A DNA stretch of 64,000 nucleotides from a phage: sequence record PX969468.1; one strand, 5' to 3'. The stretch's first letter is position 1. Every line of letters begins with the position of its first letter. The position numbers and the translations under genes were made by a program. The notes beneath the pieces were generated by a model. That model worked only from the letters and a program-made list of their open reading frames with translations. It was not told the origin of the DNA and ran no database searches. Shown one piece after another: positions 26,882 to 33,872 of the stretch.

Positions 26882-27184
26882 GTGGCAAGGATGCCACTTA
26901 AAAGAGTAATAAACATGTTATACCAGAAACACGAACTTTGTGCAGAAAAAGAGTTAAATTTTGACAAAGTTATCCACAGATATTGTTATGGAAAAACCGG
27001 AAGACAACTAAGAAGATGCACTCCAGCATTCTTTCACCCCAGCAGGCGGCTAAGTCCTGAAGAGGCGACAGCAGAAAGGGTTGCATACAACTGGGAAGTT
27101 GTGTACGATATTGACAGATCCGATGTGACATCTGTTTTGGAAAACTTTGAAAACACTTACACACAAGTAGAGGATTTTTACTAA
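26882..27184 (+). CDS. Hypothetical protein (about 100 aa), start uncertain
   Basis: ORF; weak RBS. Confidence 0.4.
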   Translation: MARMPLKRVINMLYQKHELCAEKELNFDKVIHRYCYGKTGRQLRRCTPAFFHPSRRLSPEEATAERVAYNWEVVYDIDRSDVTSVLENFENTYTQVEDFY

Positions 27185-28368
27185 TGTCAAGAAACGTATT
27201 TGAAAGTGGTCAAATCACTGTCCGTGAGTTGCCAGCTATCATTCAGTTTGCCCAGCGTCATAACCGATCTGTCCTGATTTTAGGACCAATGGGTGTGGGA
27301 AAGAGTCAGGTGATGAAGCAGATCGCTGATAATATGTTCGGTGAGCGAGATGACAACCTGGTTGACGTGCGGCTGTCAGATAAAGATCCTGCCGACTTAT
27401 CTGGGCTACCTATCCCTGTAGAAGCTGATGGAACTACACGTACAGTGTTTGCAATTCCAGAATTTTGGCCTGCAGATCCGAACTGGAGCGGAATTATCTT
27501 TCTGGATGAGCTTACTCATGCAGATAACTATCTGCAAAAGGTTGCAATGCAGATTATGCTCGACCACAAGTGCGGCACCTATGCATTCCCTAAAGGCTCT
27601 GTTTTTGTGGCTGCGGGTAACCGTTCTACAGATGGTGCTGTTCTTTCGGCGCTCGAAGCTCCTCTGGCTAACCGCTTTATCATTGTAGAGGTTACAAGCA
27701 ATGCAGAGGTGTTTATTGAGGACTACGCATTCCTCAACGGGGTTCACTCCTCTGTAATTGGGTATCTGAAAAGAGTTCCATCAGCTATTGATAATTATGA
27801 GGCTATGGCTGAGATTAATTGTCCATCTTTTGCCACACCACGATCTTGGGTTGCTGCATCTGACATCTTGCACGATTTTGACAGCGGTATTATTTCTGAC
27901 GCTATGGCCCGTGTTCTTCTGCAAGGTGCTATTGGTCACACTGCAGCGGTAGAGATCTGGACCTACCACACCAAGAAACGCAACTTACCGGAAATCGGTC
28001 GGATTATGGCAGGGGGTTGCAAAGAATACGTAGGTCCTAAACAGCCAGACATCTTGTGGATTCTTGGATCTGAAGGTTGTATCGCTATTCGTAATATGAT
28101 GGAAAATGCAAGTATCTCCGACGAAGATCTTGTTAGCTGTGTGGCAAACTTCCTCGATTTCCTTTGGGAAAACTTCAAGGACGAGAACCGAGATTTTGTA
28201 TTCTCAGTCTTTATGGCGATGATGAAACCTAATGCCTTAGGAAATGCCTTGCTTATCGGTAAAGGTCGTGACAAGATTGTTGCTCAGCTGATCAAAGCAT
28301 ACCCAAACCTGATGAAGATTGTAAAAGAGTTTGGTGAAGAGTTTAGCGCCATTTTGGCTAAAGCTTAA
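27184..28368 (+). CDS. MoxR-like AAA+ ATPase
   Basis: Walker A LILGPMGVGKS, Walker B IIFLDELTHA. Confidence 0.75.
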   Translation: MSRNVFESGQITVRELPAIIQFAQRHNRSVLILGPMGVGKSQVMKQIADNMFGERDDNLVDVRLSDKDPADLSGLPIPVEADGTTRTVFAIPEFWPADPNWSGIIFLDELTHADNYLQKVAMQIMLDHKCGTYAFPKGSVFVAAGNRSTDGAVLSALEAPLANRFIIVEVTSNAEVFIEDYAFLNGVHSSVIGYLKRVPSAIDNYEAMAEINCPSFATPRSWVAASDILHDFDSGIISDAMARVLLQGAIGHTAAVEIWTYHTKKRNLPEIGRIMAGGCKEYVGPKQPDILWILGSEGCIAIRNMMENASISDEDLVSCVANFLDFLWENFKDENRDFVFSVFMAMMKPNALGNALLIGKGRDKIVAQLIKAYPNLMKIVKEFGEEFSAILAKA

Positions 28369-28377
28369 GGAGGTTGT

Positions 28378-28758
28378 ATGGCTAAAGTAGGTAAGCGGGG
28401 AAACTACCTGGTGGTATTGACCGAGGAGCCGGAGAAGGAGTACGAATGCAGCTCCACTTGCGTGATCGATATCCGAGAAAAAGATGTAGATGAAATCTGG
28501 TTTAAAATATTGGACGCTTGCGATAGCAGTGATTATTTCTTCATCTATGTCAACGATAAGGCTGGGTTCTTCCATGACGACGGAGAGTTGCCGTATGAAA
28601 TCTATGAACTTGTAGAGGCTTGCCATCGTGGAGATGCGGAGTTGTTTGGCCTACGGCTGAAAAGCGGTAAATTCTTCTATCAAGATGAGTGCATGAATCT
28701 TCATAACTTTGTAGAGGGAACTTGCAACGATGGAGAGATTTTGGCACACTACGATTAA
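28378..28758 (+). CDS. Hypothetical protein (126 aa)
   Basis: ORF with RBS AAGGAGG. Confidence 0.45.
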   Translation: MAKVGKRGNYLVVLTEEPEKEYECSSTCVIDIREKDVDEIWFKILDACDSSDYFFIYVNDKAGFFHDDGELPYEIYELVEACHRGDAELFGLRLKSGKFFYQDECMNLHNFVEGTCNDGEILAHYD

Positions 28759-28769
28759 TTTCTAATACC

Positions 28770-28797
28770 ACCCCGCTTCGGCGGGGATTTTCTATTT
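28770..28797 (+). terminator. Intrinsic terminator (same stem as 2633-2660)
   Basis: CCCCGC-TTCG-GCGGGG followed by ATTTTCTATTT. Confidence 0.7.
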
Positions 28798-28806
28798 GGA
28801 GTTATT

Positions 28807-29307
28807 GTGAAAATTAAGATCTTTGCTATTATTTTGAGCGCATTTTTATCGCTGCCTGTTGTTGCAGCACCAAAACAAAAAGTATATCATACTTGCAAGC
28901 CCTCAGATACTAAGGAAAACATTTTGGCATGTAATATCTACAGGGAAGCTAGAGGGGATGGCACGATGGGTATGCTGGCATCTGGGTTTGCCACATTAAA
29001 CAGGAAATCTCACCCTAAATACCCAGACACTATAAGAAAGATTGTCTACCAACCTAACCAGTTTTCGTGGACAAACCACGGCAAAACTTTTAAGGTGACA
29101 GAAAAAGATTCATGGGATCACGCTAAAAGTCTTGCAAAGATGCTTCTAAAGGTCTATAATAACAACCATGTTGCATACATGGCTATGGACATAACAGGTG
29201 GAGCAACACACTACCATACAACCAAAGTACTACCGAAATGGGCAAAAAAGATGCAGAGGACAGCTCAATTCGGGAGCCATATCTACTACAAGGAGCGCAA
29301 TAAATGA
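28807..29307 (+). CDS. Secreted cell-wall hydrolase, SleB/CwlJ-like
   Basis: N-terminal signal peptide (MKIKIFAIILSAFLSLPVVAAP); NIYREARGDG..ATLNR resembles EARGE motif of the family. Confidence 0.6.
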   Translation: MKIKIFAIILSAFLSLPVVAAPKQKVYHTCKPSDTKENILACNIYREARGDGTMGMLASGFATLNRKSHPKYPDTIRKIVYQPNQFSWTNHGKTFKVTEKDSWDHAKSLAKMLLKVYNNNHVAYMAMDITGGATHYHTTKVLPKWAKKMQRTAQFGSHIYYKERNK

Positions 29308-31286
29308 TTGTAAACAGTAATGAAACTAAAGCAGTGCTAACCGGAAATATGGAGGTCACCAGGGGCTCAATTTCTCTTAACAAAGAGACTTTTGGGCTAA
29401 TCATTAAAGGGATTTACGAAGATAAGGTGCTGGCAAGCTGCCGTGAACCAATCTTCAATGCTGTGGACTCTCATGTTGAGTCTGGACGGGGTGATGTGCC
29501 GATCATTATTCACTCTCCTACAGACCTTGAACCATACTTCTTTGTGCAGGACGTTGGATTGGGCATGTCAGAAGAGATGGTCCGCAACACTTTCATGAAC
29601 CTCGGTGAGTCAACCAAGCGCAACAGCAACGCTCTGGTTGGCAATAAAGGTGTTGGTTCAAAGGCTCCGTTCAGCATGGTGGACACTTTCGATGTTATCA
29701 GTGTGCACAATGGTATTGAAAGCACATATCTATTGTTCTTGGATCAGGGTATCCCAAACGTTACCAAGATCCGCGAGCGGAAGACTGAAGAGCACAACGG
29801 GGTAAAAGTTCAGTTCCATGTTAAGAAAGAGCATGTTCTGAAATATCGCACTGCTATTGCGTCATGCCTACGCTATGCAAAGTTTCCGTTTACCGTTACC
29901 GACCCTATGACCAGTAAGATGCTGGAAGGTGACAAGGTTGAGGCGCAGTATCGCTACGAGAAAGATGGTTGGAAAATGACTATCCTGAAAGGTTATACCA
30001 GCTCTGATGAGAGCCGTGTGGTGATGGGACACCAACCTTACCGCTCTAAGTTTCTGGAAACATTGACAGACTACCCTGCAATCTGTGTAGAGATCCCTAT
30101 CGGGGATTGCAATATTAACCCTGGGCGCGAATGGACCATAGAGGGGCACGACGATGGTGGATTCCAGGATCGCCTGGAGGCCTTTGTCAAAGAAGGTATA
30201 CGTCTTCGTGGGGCAGAAGTTGTTGCAGAACTGGAGACGGCAAAAACCTCCGCAGAAGCACGTGAAATGATGAAGAATAGTGGGGTGTTCGGACACATCT
30301 TCGGCAAAAACTTTATGTGGAACCGTTGGGAAGAAACAGGACTTGGAGACTTAGGCGATTGTGAAATTTTCGCTGGCGGCTTAAATAAAGGCCGCATAGG
30401 CTATGCTCGTTATGGAAAGTCAGAGTTCTTACGGGGAGTCTATTTAGTATTTAACGACGGAGACGGCAAATATAACCGAAATAAGTGTAACTACTTAAGC
30501 GAGATCACCGGACGCAACGTTTTCTATTGCCGTAACACGGATCTGGTGGAAGAGTTTAAAGAAGCGGCACACCACCCGTTCTTTGCAGATACAGTCAAAT
30601 TGTTATCAGAGCTCCCTCGCCGACCTGTCAAGAAAGGTGAAACAAAAACTCGTTATGAGCCAGGCTATTGGGTTAAAAAACTTGAGAAGGATGGTTACTT
30701 CCGCCGTGAGCGTATTACTAAGGCAGAGTTCCGGAAGATTAAACACTGCATCCCTTATGAGGGTGATATCCAACGTGGAAGTTGTTGGCTGGGGCAGATG
30801 AGTAACATCTACCAGCAAGATTATGACCGTGTACGTGCGGCACTTCAGATTCCTGAAGGTGAAGATCTGTATCTGGTATCTGAATCTCGTCTGCTTTGGA
30901 CTGATCCTGATTGCCAGTATGTTACAGAGAAGAATGTGGAGCACCTGTTGAAAGAGGATGCTTGGAAATTCTTACTGACCCGTGCAGCAAATGAGACTTC
31001 TTATGACAGCCTGTATAGACAATTAGGGAAAATTATTCCCATGCAAGATTTTGGAAATTATCGGCCACATTTCCACAAGTGGGAAGGTAACACCACGTGG
31101 AAGCACAGTGAGCTAAATCATCGTGCCAAAATCTTAATCGCCAACCGAGTTAAATGCGGGAAGGCCTATATTGCAAGATTGGAAAAGAAATACCCACTTT
31201 TGAAGCATGTAGGCTTGAAATATTGGGACACTCCTGCTATGATTGAATACCGTGAACTGATCGATACAAAGAATAACATCAAATAA
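29304..31286 (+). CDS. rIIA: rIIA-like protein
   Basis: N-terminal GHKL-type motifs (FFVQDVGLGMSEEM, GNKGVGSKAPFSM) matching recalled T4 rIIA N-terminus. Confidence 0.7.
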   Translation: MIVNSNETKAVLTGNMEVTRGSISLNKETFGLIIKGIYEDKVLASCREPIFNAVDSHVESGRGDVPIIIHSPTDLEPYFFVQDVGLGMSEEMVRNTFMNLGESTKRNSNALVGNKGVGSKAPFSMVDTFDVISVHNGIESTYLLFLDQGIPNVTKIRERKTEEHNGVKVQFHVKKEHVLKYRTAIASCLRYAKFPFTVTDPMTSKMLEGDKVEAQYRYEKDGWKMTILKGYTSSDESRVVMGHQPYRSKFLETLTDYPAICVEIPIGDCNINPGREWTIEGHDDGGFQDRLEAFVKEGIRLRGAEVVAELETAKTSAEAREMMKNSGVFGHIFGKNFMWNRWEETGLGDLGDCEIFAGGLNKGRIGYARYGKSEFLRGVYLVFNDGDGKYNRNKCNYLSEITGRNVFYCRNTDLVEEFKEAAHHPFFADTVKLLSELPRRPVKKGETKTRYEPGYWVKKLEKDGYFRRERITKAEFRKIKHCIPYEGDIQRGSCWLGQMSNIYQQDYDRVRAALQIPEGEDLYLVSESRLLWTDPDCQYVTEKNVEHLLKEDAWKFLLTRAANETSYDSLYRQLGKIIPMQDFGNYRPHFHKWEGNTTWKHSELNHRAKILIANRVKCGKAYIARLEKKYPLLKHVGLKYWDTPAMIEYRELIDTKNNIK

Positions 31287-31296
31287 GGAGACCAAG

Positions 31297-32502
31297 ATGA
31301 TTTTCATCTACGAACATTTCAAAACTCGTAAAGAAGCACGCGACCGCCGTGCAGAACTTGAGAAGAAAGGTTTCACATGTGCCATTGAGAAAGGTGACAC
31401 AACCTGGACACTGGCAGTGGGTGCCCCAGAATTGTTCGATCCTGACCGTGACAGCGTCTGCTACACCCGTGAGGATTTTGAAACCCGTGAAGAGGCCCGT
31501 CTATTTCGATATGGGCTGGAAGATAACGGTAAGTACGCCATGATCTTAGACTTAGGCGAAGGTTCCGTTAAACGTTGGGGCGTGATATACCCACTGTGTG
31601 TTGTTCACGGTGTGGGGTTTACTGGGGTAGCAATCAAGTCAGAAGAACCTTTAGTAGAAGTCAAAGATCCGGTGCTGGAAGTGGTGAGCAGTGTGTCTCA
31701 GCAACAGACTCGAAGCATCGAGCCTTTGGTAGTTATTTGCGGGGAACTCCTCCAGATCACCTGCAACGAAGGAATTTTTGAAATTCGCCGCAGCGAAAGT
31801 GAGGAAGTTTACCAGAAAGTCTTCGACCATATCTCTGTTCAGGAATATGATGAGGCAATTGGTGAAATCCTTGTCTGGCTGGAACGCAAGAATGAGTTCA
31901 CCACACTTGCAGACAACCTGATCATGAAAGATGGTAAGCTCTACTACTACGGTGTAGAGATGCGATCCACCATTGCAAAGAAAATTGAGAAAGATTATGC
32001 AGACGGAACGCTGGATGACCGCTATGTGAAATTCCTCGTTCGCCTGCTACGCAATCCTTCTGCAAAATCTGTAAACATGCTCTACGATTTTATGCAGGCC
32101 AATGATATTCAGATTGCAGAAGATGGTCGAATCATTTGCTACAAAGGGGTTCAGTTTAACGGCAGCAAGTGGGTGGATTGTCACAGTGGTAAAGTTCCAC
32201 AATACCAGGGTGCTTTTGTATCCATGCCTCGTAACTTTGTAGAGGATGATCCGGAAGCTGCGTGCTCCTATGGCTTACACTGCGCCAGCAAAGAGTATGC
32301 AAAGAGCTACGGCACTGTAATGACTGTTATGGTTGATCCTGCAGATGTGGTTAGTGTGCCATACCAACACAATAGCGCTAAGTGCCGTGCATGCCGCTAT
32401 GAGATTGTGGTAGCTCCGGAAGCACGCAAAGATGGAGACCCTATTGAATATGTAGTTGATCGTGACGGTAACACTATCGACATTCTTTACGAGGAGGCGT
32501 AA
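31297..32502 (+). CDS. rIIB: rIIB-like protein
   Basis: C-terminal signature (MLYDFMQANDIQIAEDG..DCHSGKV..MPR..SYGLHCASKEY..DVVSVPY..AKCRACRYEIV) matching recalled T4 rIIB. Confidence 0.65.
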   Translation: MIFIYEHFKTRKEARDRRAELEKKGFTCAIEKGDTTWTLAVGAPELFDPDRDSVCYTREDFETREEARLFRYGLEDNGKYAMILDLGEGSVKRWGVIYPLCVVHGVGFTGVAIKSEEPLVEVKDPVLEVVSSVSQQQTRSIEPLVVICGELLQITCNEGIFEIRRSESEEVYQKVFDHISVQEYDEAIGEILVWLERKNEFTTLADNLIMKDGKLYYYGVEMRSTIAKKIEKDYADGTLDDRYVKFLVRLLRNPSAKSVNMLYDFMQANDIQIAEDGRIICYKGVQFNGSKWVDCHSGKVPQYQGAFVSMPRNFVEDDPEAACSYGLHCASKEYAKSYGTVMTVMVDPADVVSVPYQHNSAKCRACRYEIVVAPEARKDGDPIEYVVDRDGNTIDILYEEA

Positions 32503-33872
32503 TGGAAAAAGGGCAGTATGATGTAGGCACAGATGCTGCCCTCGTTGCAATCATGAGCGGTGAGAATGTCTTCGTTTCAGGACCCGCAGGTTGTGGGAAG
32601 ACGTACCTCATCAACATGATCCAGTCAATGTATGGAGACTCTTGCATAACGGTTGCCCCGACAGGGGTAGCCGCTTTAAACGTTAATGGAGCAACAGCAC
32701 ACCGAACCTTCGATCTTGCAGCAGGTGTGAGCATGGAGTCAGACTGGACCGCAATAAGGGAAAAAACAGCAAAGCCTTTGAAAAGCAAGGCATTTACCAT
32801 CCTAATTATCGATGAAATCTCTATGATCCGTGCTGATAAGTTTATAGAGATGGATAGGAAACTCCGCTTCCTTCGAAAAAATGACAAACCTTTCGGGGGC
32901 ATACAGGTCATATTGTTTGGCGATTTTTACCAGGCACCTCCTGTTGTCTCTTCTATGGAGAAGGAAGCCTACTTCAACTTCTACCATACGGACCTATGTT
33001 GCTATACCGAATCTTGGAAAGAGCTTGACCTCCACAACATAGCCCTAATAGATCAGTTCCGACAGGAGTCTATTCGATTCGCCACAATGCTCAACTGTGT
33101 TCGTGAGGGTCGTCGCATAAAAGAGGTTGTAGCAGAGCTTAATGCTCGCTGTTACAAAGGTGGTGTACCAACAGACGCTCTCACAATTTGCGCCACCAAC
33201 AAACAAGCAGAGGAAGTGAACAGAAGGTTCTATGATGCCATCAACGCCCCAGAGAAGGTATACACTGGTGAAATGAAGGGTAAGTTTCCCTCCACCTTGC
33301 CAGTTGAGCAGGAGATGAAGTTGAAAATTGGCATGAAAGTTATGATAACCGCCAACGATGTTGACCCGACGCACAAAGTACCTTATTATGTTAACGGAAC
33401 ACGTGCCACGATTGTTAAATTTAAGAACAAGGCAGTGGTGGTAGAGCTTGAAGATGGAACACAGGTTGACATAGAGCAGAGGTTGTGGGAGAATAACGAG
33501 TATAAGCCATCTCAAAGATACAACATTGCAGAAAGGAAGATGGAGAAGTTTATAGAGAGGGTAGTGATTGGATCATACAAGCAACTTCCTCTGAAATCTG
33601 GGTATGCCGTAACATCTCATAAAAGTCAAGGACTTACGCTAGATTGTTACAACCTGGACCTTGGAAAGAACGGAGCTTTCTCTCCTGGGATGACGTATGT
33701 TGCTTTGAGTCGAGTTAAGACAATACAAGGAATAAACTTGTTGCGTCCACTAAGAGAAGTTGACATTATTGTTGACCCGCGAGTCGTAGAGTTTTACAAT
33801 ACAACATTCCCTGACTTAGACAAAATTGTCAGGAAAGATTTTGAAACCAGAGCAGAAGAGGGGGACGTATGA
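32502..33872 (+). CDS. SF1 helicase, Dda/Pif1-like
   Basis: Walker A VSGPAGCGKTY, Walker B ILIIDEISMI, YAVTSHKSQGLTLD motif. Confidence 0.75.
   Translation: MEKGQYDVGTDAALVAIMSGENVFVSGPAGCGKTYLINMIQSMYGDSCITVAPTGVAALNVNGATAHRTFDLAAGVSMESDWTAIREKTAKPLKSKAFTILIIDEISMIRADKFIEMDRKLRFLRKNDKPFGGIQVILFGDFYQAPPVVSSMEKEAYFNFYHTDLCCYTESWKELDLHNIALIDQFRQESIRFATMLNCVREGRRIKEVVAELNARCYKGGVPTDALTICATNKQAEEVNRRFYDAINAPEKVYTGEMKGKFPSTLPVEQEMKLKIGMKVMITANDVDPTHKVPYYVNGTRATIVKFKNKAVVVELEDGTQVDIEQRLWENNEYKPSQRYNIAERKMEKFIERVVIGSYKQLPLKSGYAVTSHKSQGLTLDCYNLDLGKNGAFSPGMTYVALSRVKTIQGINLLRPLREVDIIVDPRVVEFYNTTFPDLDKIVRKDFETRAEEGDV

Follow-up and report, generated by a model that had tools for sequence, protein, structure and literature searches.

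A predicted exported SleB-family cell wall hydrolase homologue encoded directly upstream of rIIA and rIIB in an rV5-like phage of Escherichia coli

The gene that directly precedes the rIIA and rIIB homologues of this phage encodes a member of the SleB catalytic-domain superfamily, which carries at its N-terminus a typical, cleavable-looking Sec signal peptide, so that export and cleavage are predicted. The reading we favour, and hold to be rather probable, is that of an accessory SleB-family lytic transglycosylase homologue, made at a low level and exported independently of a holin, which would work beside the main lysis system of the phage; within this model, the accessory role is much less secure than the identity and the export. 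The window (the whole stretch of DNA that was analysed) comprises 64,000 nucleotides, and the features discussed below are collected in Table 1. Judged by its sequence, the source phage is a Vequintavirus, an rV5-like myovirus of E. coli; between 27 and 33 kb of the window, it shares 97-98% nucleotide identity with more than 100 deposited phages.

In the present phage, the hydrolase gene corresponds to gene 2 of rV5, which in 2013 was entered as 'cell wall hydrolase, 166 aa, PF07486' and which adjoins gene 1, rIIA (PMC3606486); the two agree in length, domain, preceding terminator (t003 in rV5), and position before rIIA. Orthologues within the Vequintavirinae include navn_192, slur16 gp061, CB7_83, and CR3_087; identity is 97-98% in nucleotides and about 98% in protein. 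More than 100 related genomes carry an annotation of the gene, which in relatives is called either 'cell wall hydrolase SleB' or 'endolysin'. The CB7 homologue has been described as conserved in all genera of the Vequintavirinae, with a signal peptide (PMC7344957), and the presence of 'two endolysins' has been noted for PVP-SE1/BME3, for T5-like Salmonella phages, and for Phapecoctavirus (PMC12210895, PMC11180984, PMC10793346). The gene, its Pfam family, its terminator, its signal peptide, and the two-lysin situation are thus already annotated or published for rV5-like phages. As to function, T5.083, the homologue in T5, is absent from the main text of the papers searched, 'SleB-like' together with phage occurs only in genome descriptions, and a transposon-mutagenesis preprint holds nothing relevant to the function of the hydrolase. 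What is added here is comparative: the recurrence of export signals of different kinds, the recurrence of an upstream hairpin and of weak start codons, and a small membrane open reading frame (ORF) in Seunavirus and Mydovirus, all of which leave the classification unchanged.

Table 1. Positions of the hydrolase gene, its parts, and neighbouring signals and genes in the window.
Feature	Position	Strand	Basis
Sigma-70 promoter equivalent to rV5 P010	24622-24650	+	exact match to the P010 sequence TTGACTTTACTCTAAATCTCCGATATAGT (rV5 Table S4)
Intrinsic terminator, CCCCGC-TTCG-GCGGGG followed by ATTTTCTATT / ATTTTCTATTT (T-rich tail)	28771-28797	+	terminator scan
Shine-Dalgarno sequence GGAG, 5 nt 5' of GTG	28798-28801	+	read directly from the sequence
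Cell wall hydrolase gene, 166 codons/aa	28807-29307	+	intact ORF, GTG start
Predicted Sec signal peptide, residues 1-20 (MKIKIFAIILSAFLSLPVVA)	28807-28866	+	n/h/c regions, -3/-1 rule
Mature SleB-family (Hydrolase_2) catalytic domain and stop codon	28867-29307	+	Pfam, sequence and fold matches
Codon for conserved Cys30	28894-28896	+	
Codon for conserved Cys42	28930-28932	+	
Codon for catalytic Glu47	28945-28947	+	alignment with SleB
Promoter-like TTGCAA-17-TATAAT inside the hydrolase gene	29132-29160	+	promoter scan, 10/12 matches
rIIA homologue	29304-31286	+	PHROG 612, E 3.8e-124; HATPase_c_3
rIIB homologue	31297-32502	+	PHROG 609, E 7.4e-62

The original prediction had placed the hydrolase ORF where it is in fact found. 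Its GTG is the sole sensible start, since the next in-frame methionine is residue 54, past the catalytic motif. Among 11 neighbouring genes, the hydrolase gene is the only one with a non-ATG start; its homologues in KB57, SSE121, and ESCO9, which belong to three other genera, start with TTG.

A profile match to the Hydrolase_2-type families was looked for and found: the protein matches Pfam PF07486 (Hydrolase_2) with E 9.5e-19 and 68.3 bits (gathering cut-off 27 bits), over profile positions 2-100 of 100. A second match is to PHROG 938 (E 4.5e-27), which bears the label 'endolysin', and an exhaustive protein search returns 11,038 cluster representatives at E <= 0.001; homologues across families are 33-55% identical over their full length. 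The only solved structures matched by sequence are the Bacillus SleB catalytic domains 4F55 and 4FET (E 2.5e-6), in which the catalytic-glutamate motif, YGESRGE, aligns with Y45-R-E47-A-R-G-D of the phage protein; E47 is invariant in 11 aligned sequences and in all nine phage lineages aligned, and ten further positions of the hydrolase alignment are invariant as well. An AF2 model built from the alignment of 11 sequences has a mean pLDDT of 88.3, and a Foldseek comparison of this model with the PDB again returns only 4F55 and 4FET as significant, with probability 1.00 and target TM-scores of 0.75-0.79. The profile match, the alignment of E47, and the fold together bear out the original description of a SleB-like hydrolase with an EARG-type motif.

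Membership in the superfamily does not extend to SleB itself. Against the spore_SleB equivalog of NCBIfam (TIGR02869), the phage protein scores 47.8 bits, where the equivalog cut-off is 236.5 bits, and it covers profile positions 83-201 only, which represent the C-terminal domain; an N-terminal peptidoglycan-binding domain (PG_binding) is not found in it by Pfam. SleB proper, or an orthologue of it, was rejected as an identification because the score is far under the cut-off and the two-domain architecture is missing. The phage enzyme thus has the same catalytic domain fold and catalytic-glutamate motif as Bacillus SleB, at 24% identity, but it lacks the N-terminal peptidoglycan-binding domain and takes no part in germination. 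SleB is a lytic transglycosylase of the spore cortex, as the titles of the PDB entries also state, and by analogy the chemistry of the phage hydrolase is presumably the same. The specificity determinant of SleB is muramic-delta-lactam, which the wall of E. coli does not contain; since SleB needs it, activity of the phage enzyme on ordinary peptidoglycan is assumed here.

The predicted signal peptide shows the three regions expected of a Sec substrate. The n-region, MKIK, carries a charge of +2; the h-region comprises the 15 residues I5-V19 (IFAIILSAFLSLPVV), residues 1-20 thus reading MKIK-IFAIILSAFLSLPVV-A; and the c-region has P17 at -4, V18 at -3, and A20 at -1, with a predicted signal peptidase I cut after A20. 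Kyte-Doolittle hydropathy averages 2.12 over the 19-residue window that starts at residue 1, and the best 10-residue mean of the h-region, 2.95, is strongly hydrophobic. In the AF2 model, the residues of the signal peptide have a pLDDT of 51-55 and lie apart from the globular domain. A lipoprotein signal was rejected because there is no lipobox and the first cysteine is residue 30. Its h-region, with 15-17 residues, is rather long for a signal peptide that is cleaved. The call is based on these n/h/c features and on conservation in diverged homologues, which also uphold the cleavable-looking signal peptide of the original prediction.

Signal peptides of the same architecture and different sequence are found in the homologues of Mydovirus, Seunavirus, Certrevirus, Justusliebigvirus, the T5-like phages, and Sugarlandvirus, and their cleavage sites look legitimate (VLA/K, SFA/K, VVA/Q, SQA/S, and AQA/K, the slash marking the cut); in the Pseudomonas phage homologues, the N-terminus resembles an uncleaved anchor or SAR-type segment. 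A crude heuristic, applied to 156 Met-initiated proteins, finds a signal-like N-terminus in about 123, these 156 being drawn from 150 listed representatives (of the 11,038) and from the homologues of an earlier word-indexed protein search, which had returned 11 only. A further conserved feature is the pair C30/C42 (C-x11-C), kept in the proteins of Vequintavirinae and Stephanstirmvirinae across five genera, which fits a disulfide formed in the periplasm.

The terminator that the original prediction saw before the gene is recovered by the scan as a hairpin with a stem of six G-C pairs and a tetraloop (28771-28786), 10 nt 5' of the Shine-Dalgarno sequence; with its T-rich tail, it stops 1 nt short of that sequence. 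It is identical to t003 of rV5, with a dG of -16.0 kcal/mol. Upstream of the gene block to which the hydrolase belongs, the equivalent of P010 is the sole promoter of consensus type that is predicted, as in rV5, where the gene belongs to a long unit, 10-1-238-164, with P010 as the sole predicted upstream sigma-70 promoter (PMC3606486). Neither the late-promoter motif (TGGTAAAATA) nor a sigma-70 promoter is found in the interval from the terminator to the start codon, and the late motif is also not found nearby. Since the terminator leaves no space for a promoter ahead of the Shine-Dalgarno sequence, transcripts of the hydrolase gene must cross the terminator. An unrecognised phage-specific promoter for the gene is possible. 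The promoter-like site inside the hydrolase gene, about 145 nt 5' of rIIA, may serve as an internal promoter for rIIA/rIIB, to judge from its match to the consensus; such sites are no more numerous in this region than in shuffled controls.

A GC-rich hairpin directly 5' of the gene also occurs in Mydovirus, Seunavirus, Certrevirus, Justusliebigvirus, Pakpunavirus, and phage 7-11; seven lineages thus have a hairpin at this place, the stems being unrelated in sequence, with a T-run behind the hairpin in most. In Justusliebigvirus, the hairpin is followed by a promoter of its own, TTGCAA-17-TACAAT. For one of these lineages, Pakpunavirus, there are transcript data: transcripts of gp151 of PAK_P3 (Hydrolase_2) are present at 3.5 min and again at 13 min, with a log2 fold change of 0.62 that is not significant, and the normalised counts of gp151 are 3-9-fold lower early and 2-3-fold lower late than those of the similarly sized upstream gene, from which it is separated by a GC hairpin without a T-run. 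The recurrence of the hairpin, together with that of weak start codons, suggests a deliberately low dosage of an exported enzyme that is potentially harmful.

A terminator ahead of the gene and a weak start codon could also be taken to mean that the gene is unexpressed or its product catalytically dead, a relic, a wall-binding protein, or an inhibitor, and to these can be added the score far under the SleB equivalog cut-off (47.8 vs 236.5 bits) and the T5 homologue, whose knock-down has no fitness effect. We regard this as very improbable: the catalytic glutamate and the ten other positions are invariant in proteins that are 33-55% identical over their full length across families, the Shine-Dalgarno sequence is intact, the homologue in PAK_P3 is transcribed, and expression of the CB7 homologue in E. 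coli has been reported to be toxic (PMC7344957, where the data are not shown).

Gene order and PHROG matches agree with the original placement of the gene directly upstream of rIIA/rIIB and inside a block of replication genes. Its stop codon overlaps the ATG of rIIA (ATGA); rIIB is followed by a gene for a Dda/PIF1-like helicase, after which an annotated relative has genes for a methylase, a primase-helicase, and a DNA polymerase. The structural genes are about 11 kb away, hence far, as had been said. Likewise, the claim that neither a holin nor a spanin is evident nearby stands: no holin-like small membrane ORF and no spanin is found between 22 and 40 kb of the window, and the lysozyme, Rz, and Rz1 of the relatives have no homologue within the window. 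Among the real plus-strand genes of the 22-40 kb region, only the hydrolase has a strongly hydrophobic segment; a hidden holin ORF beside it was considered and discarded, since the hydrophobic ORFs of this region are out-of-frame artefacts within known genes. Also discarded was a conserved upstream partner (a chaperone, inhibitor, or immunity protein), for example the acidic, 126-residue gp3, because the upstream neighbours are unrelated between genera.

A location of this kind is what a non-lytic, envelope-conditioning or auxiliary metabolic enzyme might have, one that would turn over peptidoglycan, that might liberate precursors or pieces of the wall or make the sacculus looser so that the cell could go on enlarging, and that might be linked to rII anti-exclusion or to superinfection control. 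In Vequintavirinae, the T5-like phages, Pakpunavirus, and Nankokuvirus, the gene lies in modules for replication and nucleotide metabolism, not in lysis cassettes. PAK_P3 gp151, which sits in a replication module between the ligase and helicase genes, is transcribed already at 3.5 min, and the PAK_P3 authors suggested that it serves as an auxiliary gene, which would explain the accumulation of cell wall precursors. The order SleB-like gene, rIIA, rIIB is kept in Vequintavirus and Seunavirus, with translational coupling in the present phage, and rII modules counter RexAB exclusion. Against this, the synteny with rII is lost in Certrevirus, which is without rII, and in all other lineages compared; no mechanism connects such a hydrolase with Rex; the metabolomic link in PAK_P3 is a suggestion only; and none of the present results favours superinfection exclusion. 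We therefore consider a purely non-lytic role unlikely.

The accessory reading, to return to it, draws on the lysis genes that relatives carry elsewhere. The near-identical phage slur16 encodes a 156-residue endolysin of the lysozyme type without a signal peptide, gp191 (MKLDKNVQRK...IAYSEGT...), and an Rz/Rz1 spanin pair beside the terminase. The counterpart of gp191 in rV5 is Gp89, called 'an obvious lysin' by the rV5 authors, who proposed gp129 as the holin (PMC3606486); LysECP26, the orthologue of this lysozyme in phage ECP26, has been purified and lysed 29/29 Gram-negative strains (PMC9728275). The original prediction met no other lysis gene because the lysozyme and Rz/Rz1 genes lie outside the window. 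It had offered the hydrolase as either the lysis enzyme or a factor in superinfection or peptidoglycan remodelling; a wall-hydrolase homologue with an export signal is indeed what is found, but the suggestion that it is the lysis enzyme is not supported in that form, given the relatives' separate lysozyme and Rz/Rz1 genes and the muralytic activity of LysECP26. The hydrolase is unlikely to be the main lysin. The location of the two genes does not help to tell the enzymes apart, because in rV5 the canonical lysozyme is also encoded in a sigma-70-driven unit and not among the late genes.

Nor does the protein resemble two other familiar kinds of phage lysin. A canonical, holin-dependent cytoplasmic endolysin is at odds with the export-signal features and with the missing linkage to a lysis cassette, and a virion-associated hydrolase with a free-standing protein of 166 residues that has a signal peptide and is encoded about 11 kb from the structural genes; nor does the main text of PMC3606486 name the hydrolase as one of the virion proteins of rV5.

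More serious is the possibility that the hydrolase is the principal or a co-principal endolysin of the secretory type, Sec-exported early, restrained in the energised envelope, and set free by depolarisation through a holin or pinholin, in the manner of SAR endolysins and Lys44. SAR endolysins, such as Lyz of P1 and R21 of phage 21, and Lys44 of the Oenococcus phage fOg44 reach the wall by a holin-independent Sec route, and the hydrolase shares this concept with them, although the enzyme families are different. SAR domains are weakly hydrophobic, rich in Gly and Ala, and uncleaved, whereas the h-region of the hydrolase is strongly hydrophobic and is followed by Pro at -4 and V-x-A at -3 to -1, features which favour cleavage; a cleavable N-terminal signal peptide of the Lys44 kind is what sequence features and conservation indicate. 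P1 Lyz, R21, and Lys44 are each the sole endolysin, paired with a holin or pinholin, whereas the present phage type has a canonical lysin in addition and no holin gene beside the hydrolase; a partner pinholin gene is not found in the window.

Support for such a partner comes from sister genera. In Certrevirus, a class II holin candidate overlaps the hydrolase homologue (PMC7344957), and in Seunavirus and Mydovirus an analogous small ORF follows the gene, encoding 53 residues in SSE121 (L006, 4549-4710) and 51 in KB57 (L005, 4536-4691), at a position for which the fetched record tables of the two phages give no annotated feature. The two products are 43% identical (E 7e-15) and have two hydrophobic segments and a basic C-terminal tail, which in SSE121 is RKARKRNPINNCK and in KB57 is limited to R43 and a terminal KK. 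The rV5-like gene of Vequintavirus, unlike the orthologues in these three genera, is without a small membrane ORF: in the window and in the whole slur16 genome, a search for homologues yields chance-level matches only, so any such pairing of hydrolase and small ORF has been lost in Vequintavirus. Where it exists, the combination looks like a hydrolase/pinholin pair, and this speaks for a genuine part in lysis, at any rate in an ancestor.

The T5-like phages offer a parallel outside the subfamily. Their homologue, T5.083 or AKFV33 orf081 ('cell wall hydrolase SleB'), belongs to PHROG 938, is about 40% identical, and has a cleavable-looking signal peptide (MKAALLLVAALTFSFSSQA/S); like the rV5 type, it coexists with a canonical endolysin, in T5 with the known lys/holin pair, and lies among the genes of the early or replication side. 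It differs from the present hydrolase in its cysteine pattern, its ATG start, its lack of an upstream terminator (the gap is 5 nt), and its lack of rII neighbours. The PAK_P3 protein differs in another way, in that its N-terminus is anchor- or SAR-like, not cleavable-looking, and its linker is longer. In a transcriptome-wide CRISPRi screen of T5, both T5.083 and lys were scored 'Not Fit', while knock-down of the holin gave a fitness defect; the screen has many false negatives, ltf and D10 being 'Not Fit' along with lys. This pattern fits a redundancy of the two hydrolases.

A principal secretory endolysin would be consistent with the label 'endolysin' of PHROG 938, with phages such as 7-11 and GAP52, in which the homologue is the only annotated endolysin, with the toxicity of the CB7 homologue and the overlapping holin candidate in Certrevirus, with the small two-segment ORF conserved in Seunavirus and Mydovirus, and with the T5 screen, where lys can be knocked down without a fitness defect and the holin cannot. 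It is opposed by the standard signal-less lysozyme of this phage type, which is active in vitro, by the lack of a small membrane ORF with the gene in the window and in the whole slur16 genome, by the weak start codon and upstream terminator, which point to a low dosage, and by T5.083, whose knock-down has no effect. Moreover, cleavage would release a soluble periplasmic enzyme, which thus has no obvious tether to hold it inactive. On this evidence, a principal or co-principal role is doubtful, though it deserves somewhat more credence than the purely non-lytic one.

The accessory reading can be stated as a sequence of steps. The gene would be transcribed with the replication-gene block from P010, and only where the polymerase reads through the hairpin terminator; this read-through and the GTG start should hold the level of the hydrolase low. 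Sec export and a cut after A20 would yield a soluble, probably disulfide-bonded, basic periplasmic enzyme of about 16.5 kDa, which would reach the wall without a holin because of its Sec signal peptide and its release into the periplasm. From before the late phase, the lytic transglycosylase would cut glycan strands, and would so nick or loosen the sacculus ahead of lysis and while it proceeds. The principal lysis machinery would be encoded elsewhere in the genome: the signal-less lysozyme of the Gp89/LysECP26 type, a putative holin, and the Rz/Rz1 spanins.

In many unrelated virulent phages of Gram-negative hosts, among them Vequintavirinae, Stephanstirmvirinae, T5-like Demerecviridae, Pakpunavirus, and Nankokuvirus, the hydrolase is present besides a normal endolysin and lies in early or replication modules. 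A broader proposal is that the protein is a tightly dosed, exported lytic transglycosylase of the SleB family, a conserved factor that conditions the envelope and is not a lysis enzyme, that it remodels or turns over peptidoglycan from early infection on, and that in the rV5 group it is co-regulated with rII; we put this forward as a speculation that is more likely wrong than right.

Well away from their lysis genes, many large virulent coliphages and phages of Salmonella and Pseudomonas encode a second wall hydrolase that is predicted to be exported, and what it is for is a genuine, if modest, question. Its role would refine the standard picture of lysis by holin, endolysin, and spanin, would show developers of enzybiotics which of the 'two endolysins' serves, and might reveal a deliberate remodelling of the cell wall in the course of infection.

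In Salmonella phage SSE121 (Seunavirus) and Klebsiella phage KB57 (Mydovirus), the SleB-like hydrolase gene is separated from rIIA by a small ORF, for which the record tables of the two phages show no annotated feature at that position. The two products share 43% identity (E 7e-15) and, because each has two hydrophobic segments followed by a basic C-terminus, they look like a holin or pinholin; an analogous ORF with two transmembrane segments is found in Certrevirus. Vequintavirus, checked in the window at 29300-29310, has no counterpart of this ORF, the stop codon of the hydrolase gene overlapping the start of rIIA. For phage T5 (NC_005859; genes T5.040, T5.041 and T5.083), the supplementary tables of a CRISPRi-ART knock-down screen score the holin as 'Fit', but the SleB-like T5.083 as 'Not Fit', and likewise lys, the known endolysin (PMC11879866); the two wall hydrolases being redundant would account for this pattern, but so would plain false negatives.

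Features in and around the hydrolase-rII region
Feature	Location	Strand	Description
ORF, ~97 aa	window 26891-27184	+	MoxR-type ATPase per annotation of relatives
ORF, 394 aa	window 27184-28368	+	MoxR-type ATPase per annotation of relatives
GC-rich hairpin	window 28771-28797		directly 5' of SleB-like gene
TTGCAA-17-TATAAT	window 29132-29160	+	sigma-70-like match, 10/12
rIIB residues 8-42	window 31318-31422	+	weak, sub-threshold SPOR match
Small ORF, 51 aa	L005 4536-4691		KB57, between SleB-like gene and rIIA
Small ORF, 53 aa	L006 4549-4710		SSE121, between SleB-like gene and rIIA

Just 5' of the hydrolase gene, two MoxR-annotated ORFs adjoin each other, the longer of which matches PHROG 1297 (E 9e-111) and, weakly, Pfam AAA families. 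On the other side, the SPOR peptidoglycan-binding domain is matched weakly by the N-terminus of rIIB, at 19.3 bits (E 0.0014), which is below the cut-off of 21. Two basic/acidic repeats that resemble each other, FKTRKEARDRR... and FETREEARLFR..., seem to be present in this N-terminus. When the 6-kb stretch at window 27000-33000 is compared with the phage collection, 16 GenBank records titled 'Campylobacter phage' (the MG0656xx series), whose stated host is C. jejuni, share 97-98% identity with rV5-like phages of E. coli; they look mislabelled or contaminated.

Two elements bear on transcription. The top sigma-70-like match of the region is located inside the hydrolase gene, ~145 nt 5' of rIIA, and may, from its consensus match only, be an internal promoter for rIIA/rIIB. 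The GC-rich hairpin, for its part, recurs in at least seven phage lineages, where it stands immediately 5' of the Hydrolase_2 gene and usually has a T-run after it (the window and loci L005, L006, L007, L008, L011, L012 and L013 from further phages), and its stem sequences are unrelated among lineages. In Pseudomonas phage PAK_P3 (Pakpunavirus), RNA-seq counts drop 3-9-fold across the hairpin; its recurrence and this drop therefore suggest that attenuation of the Hydrolase_2 gene by an upstream hairpin is conserved.
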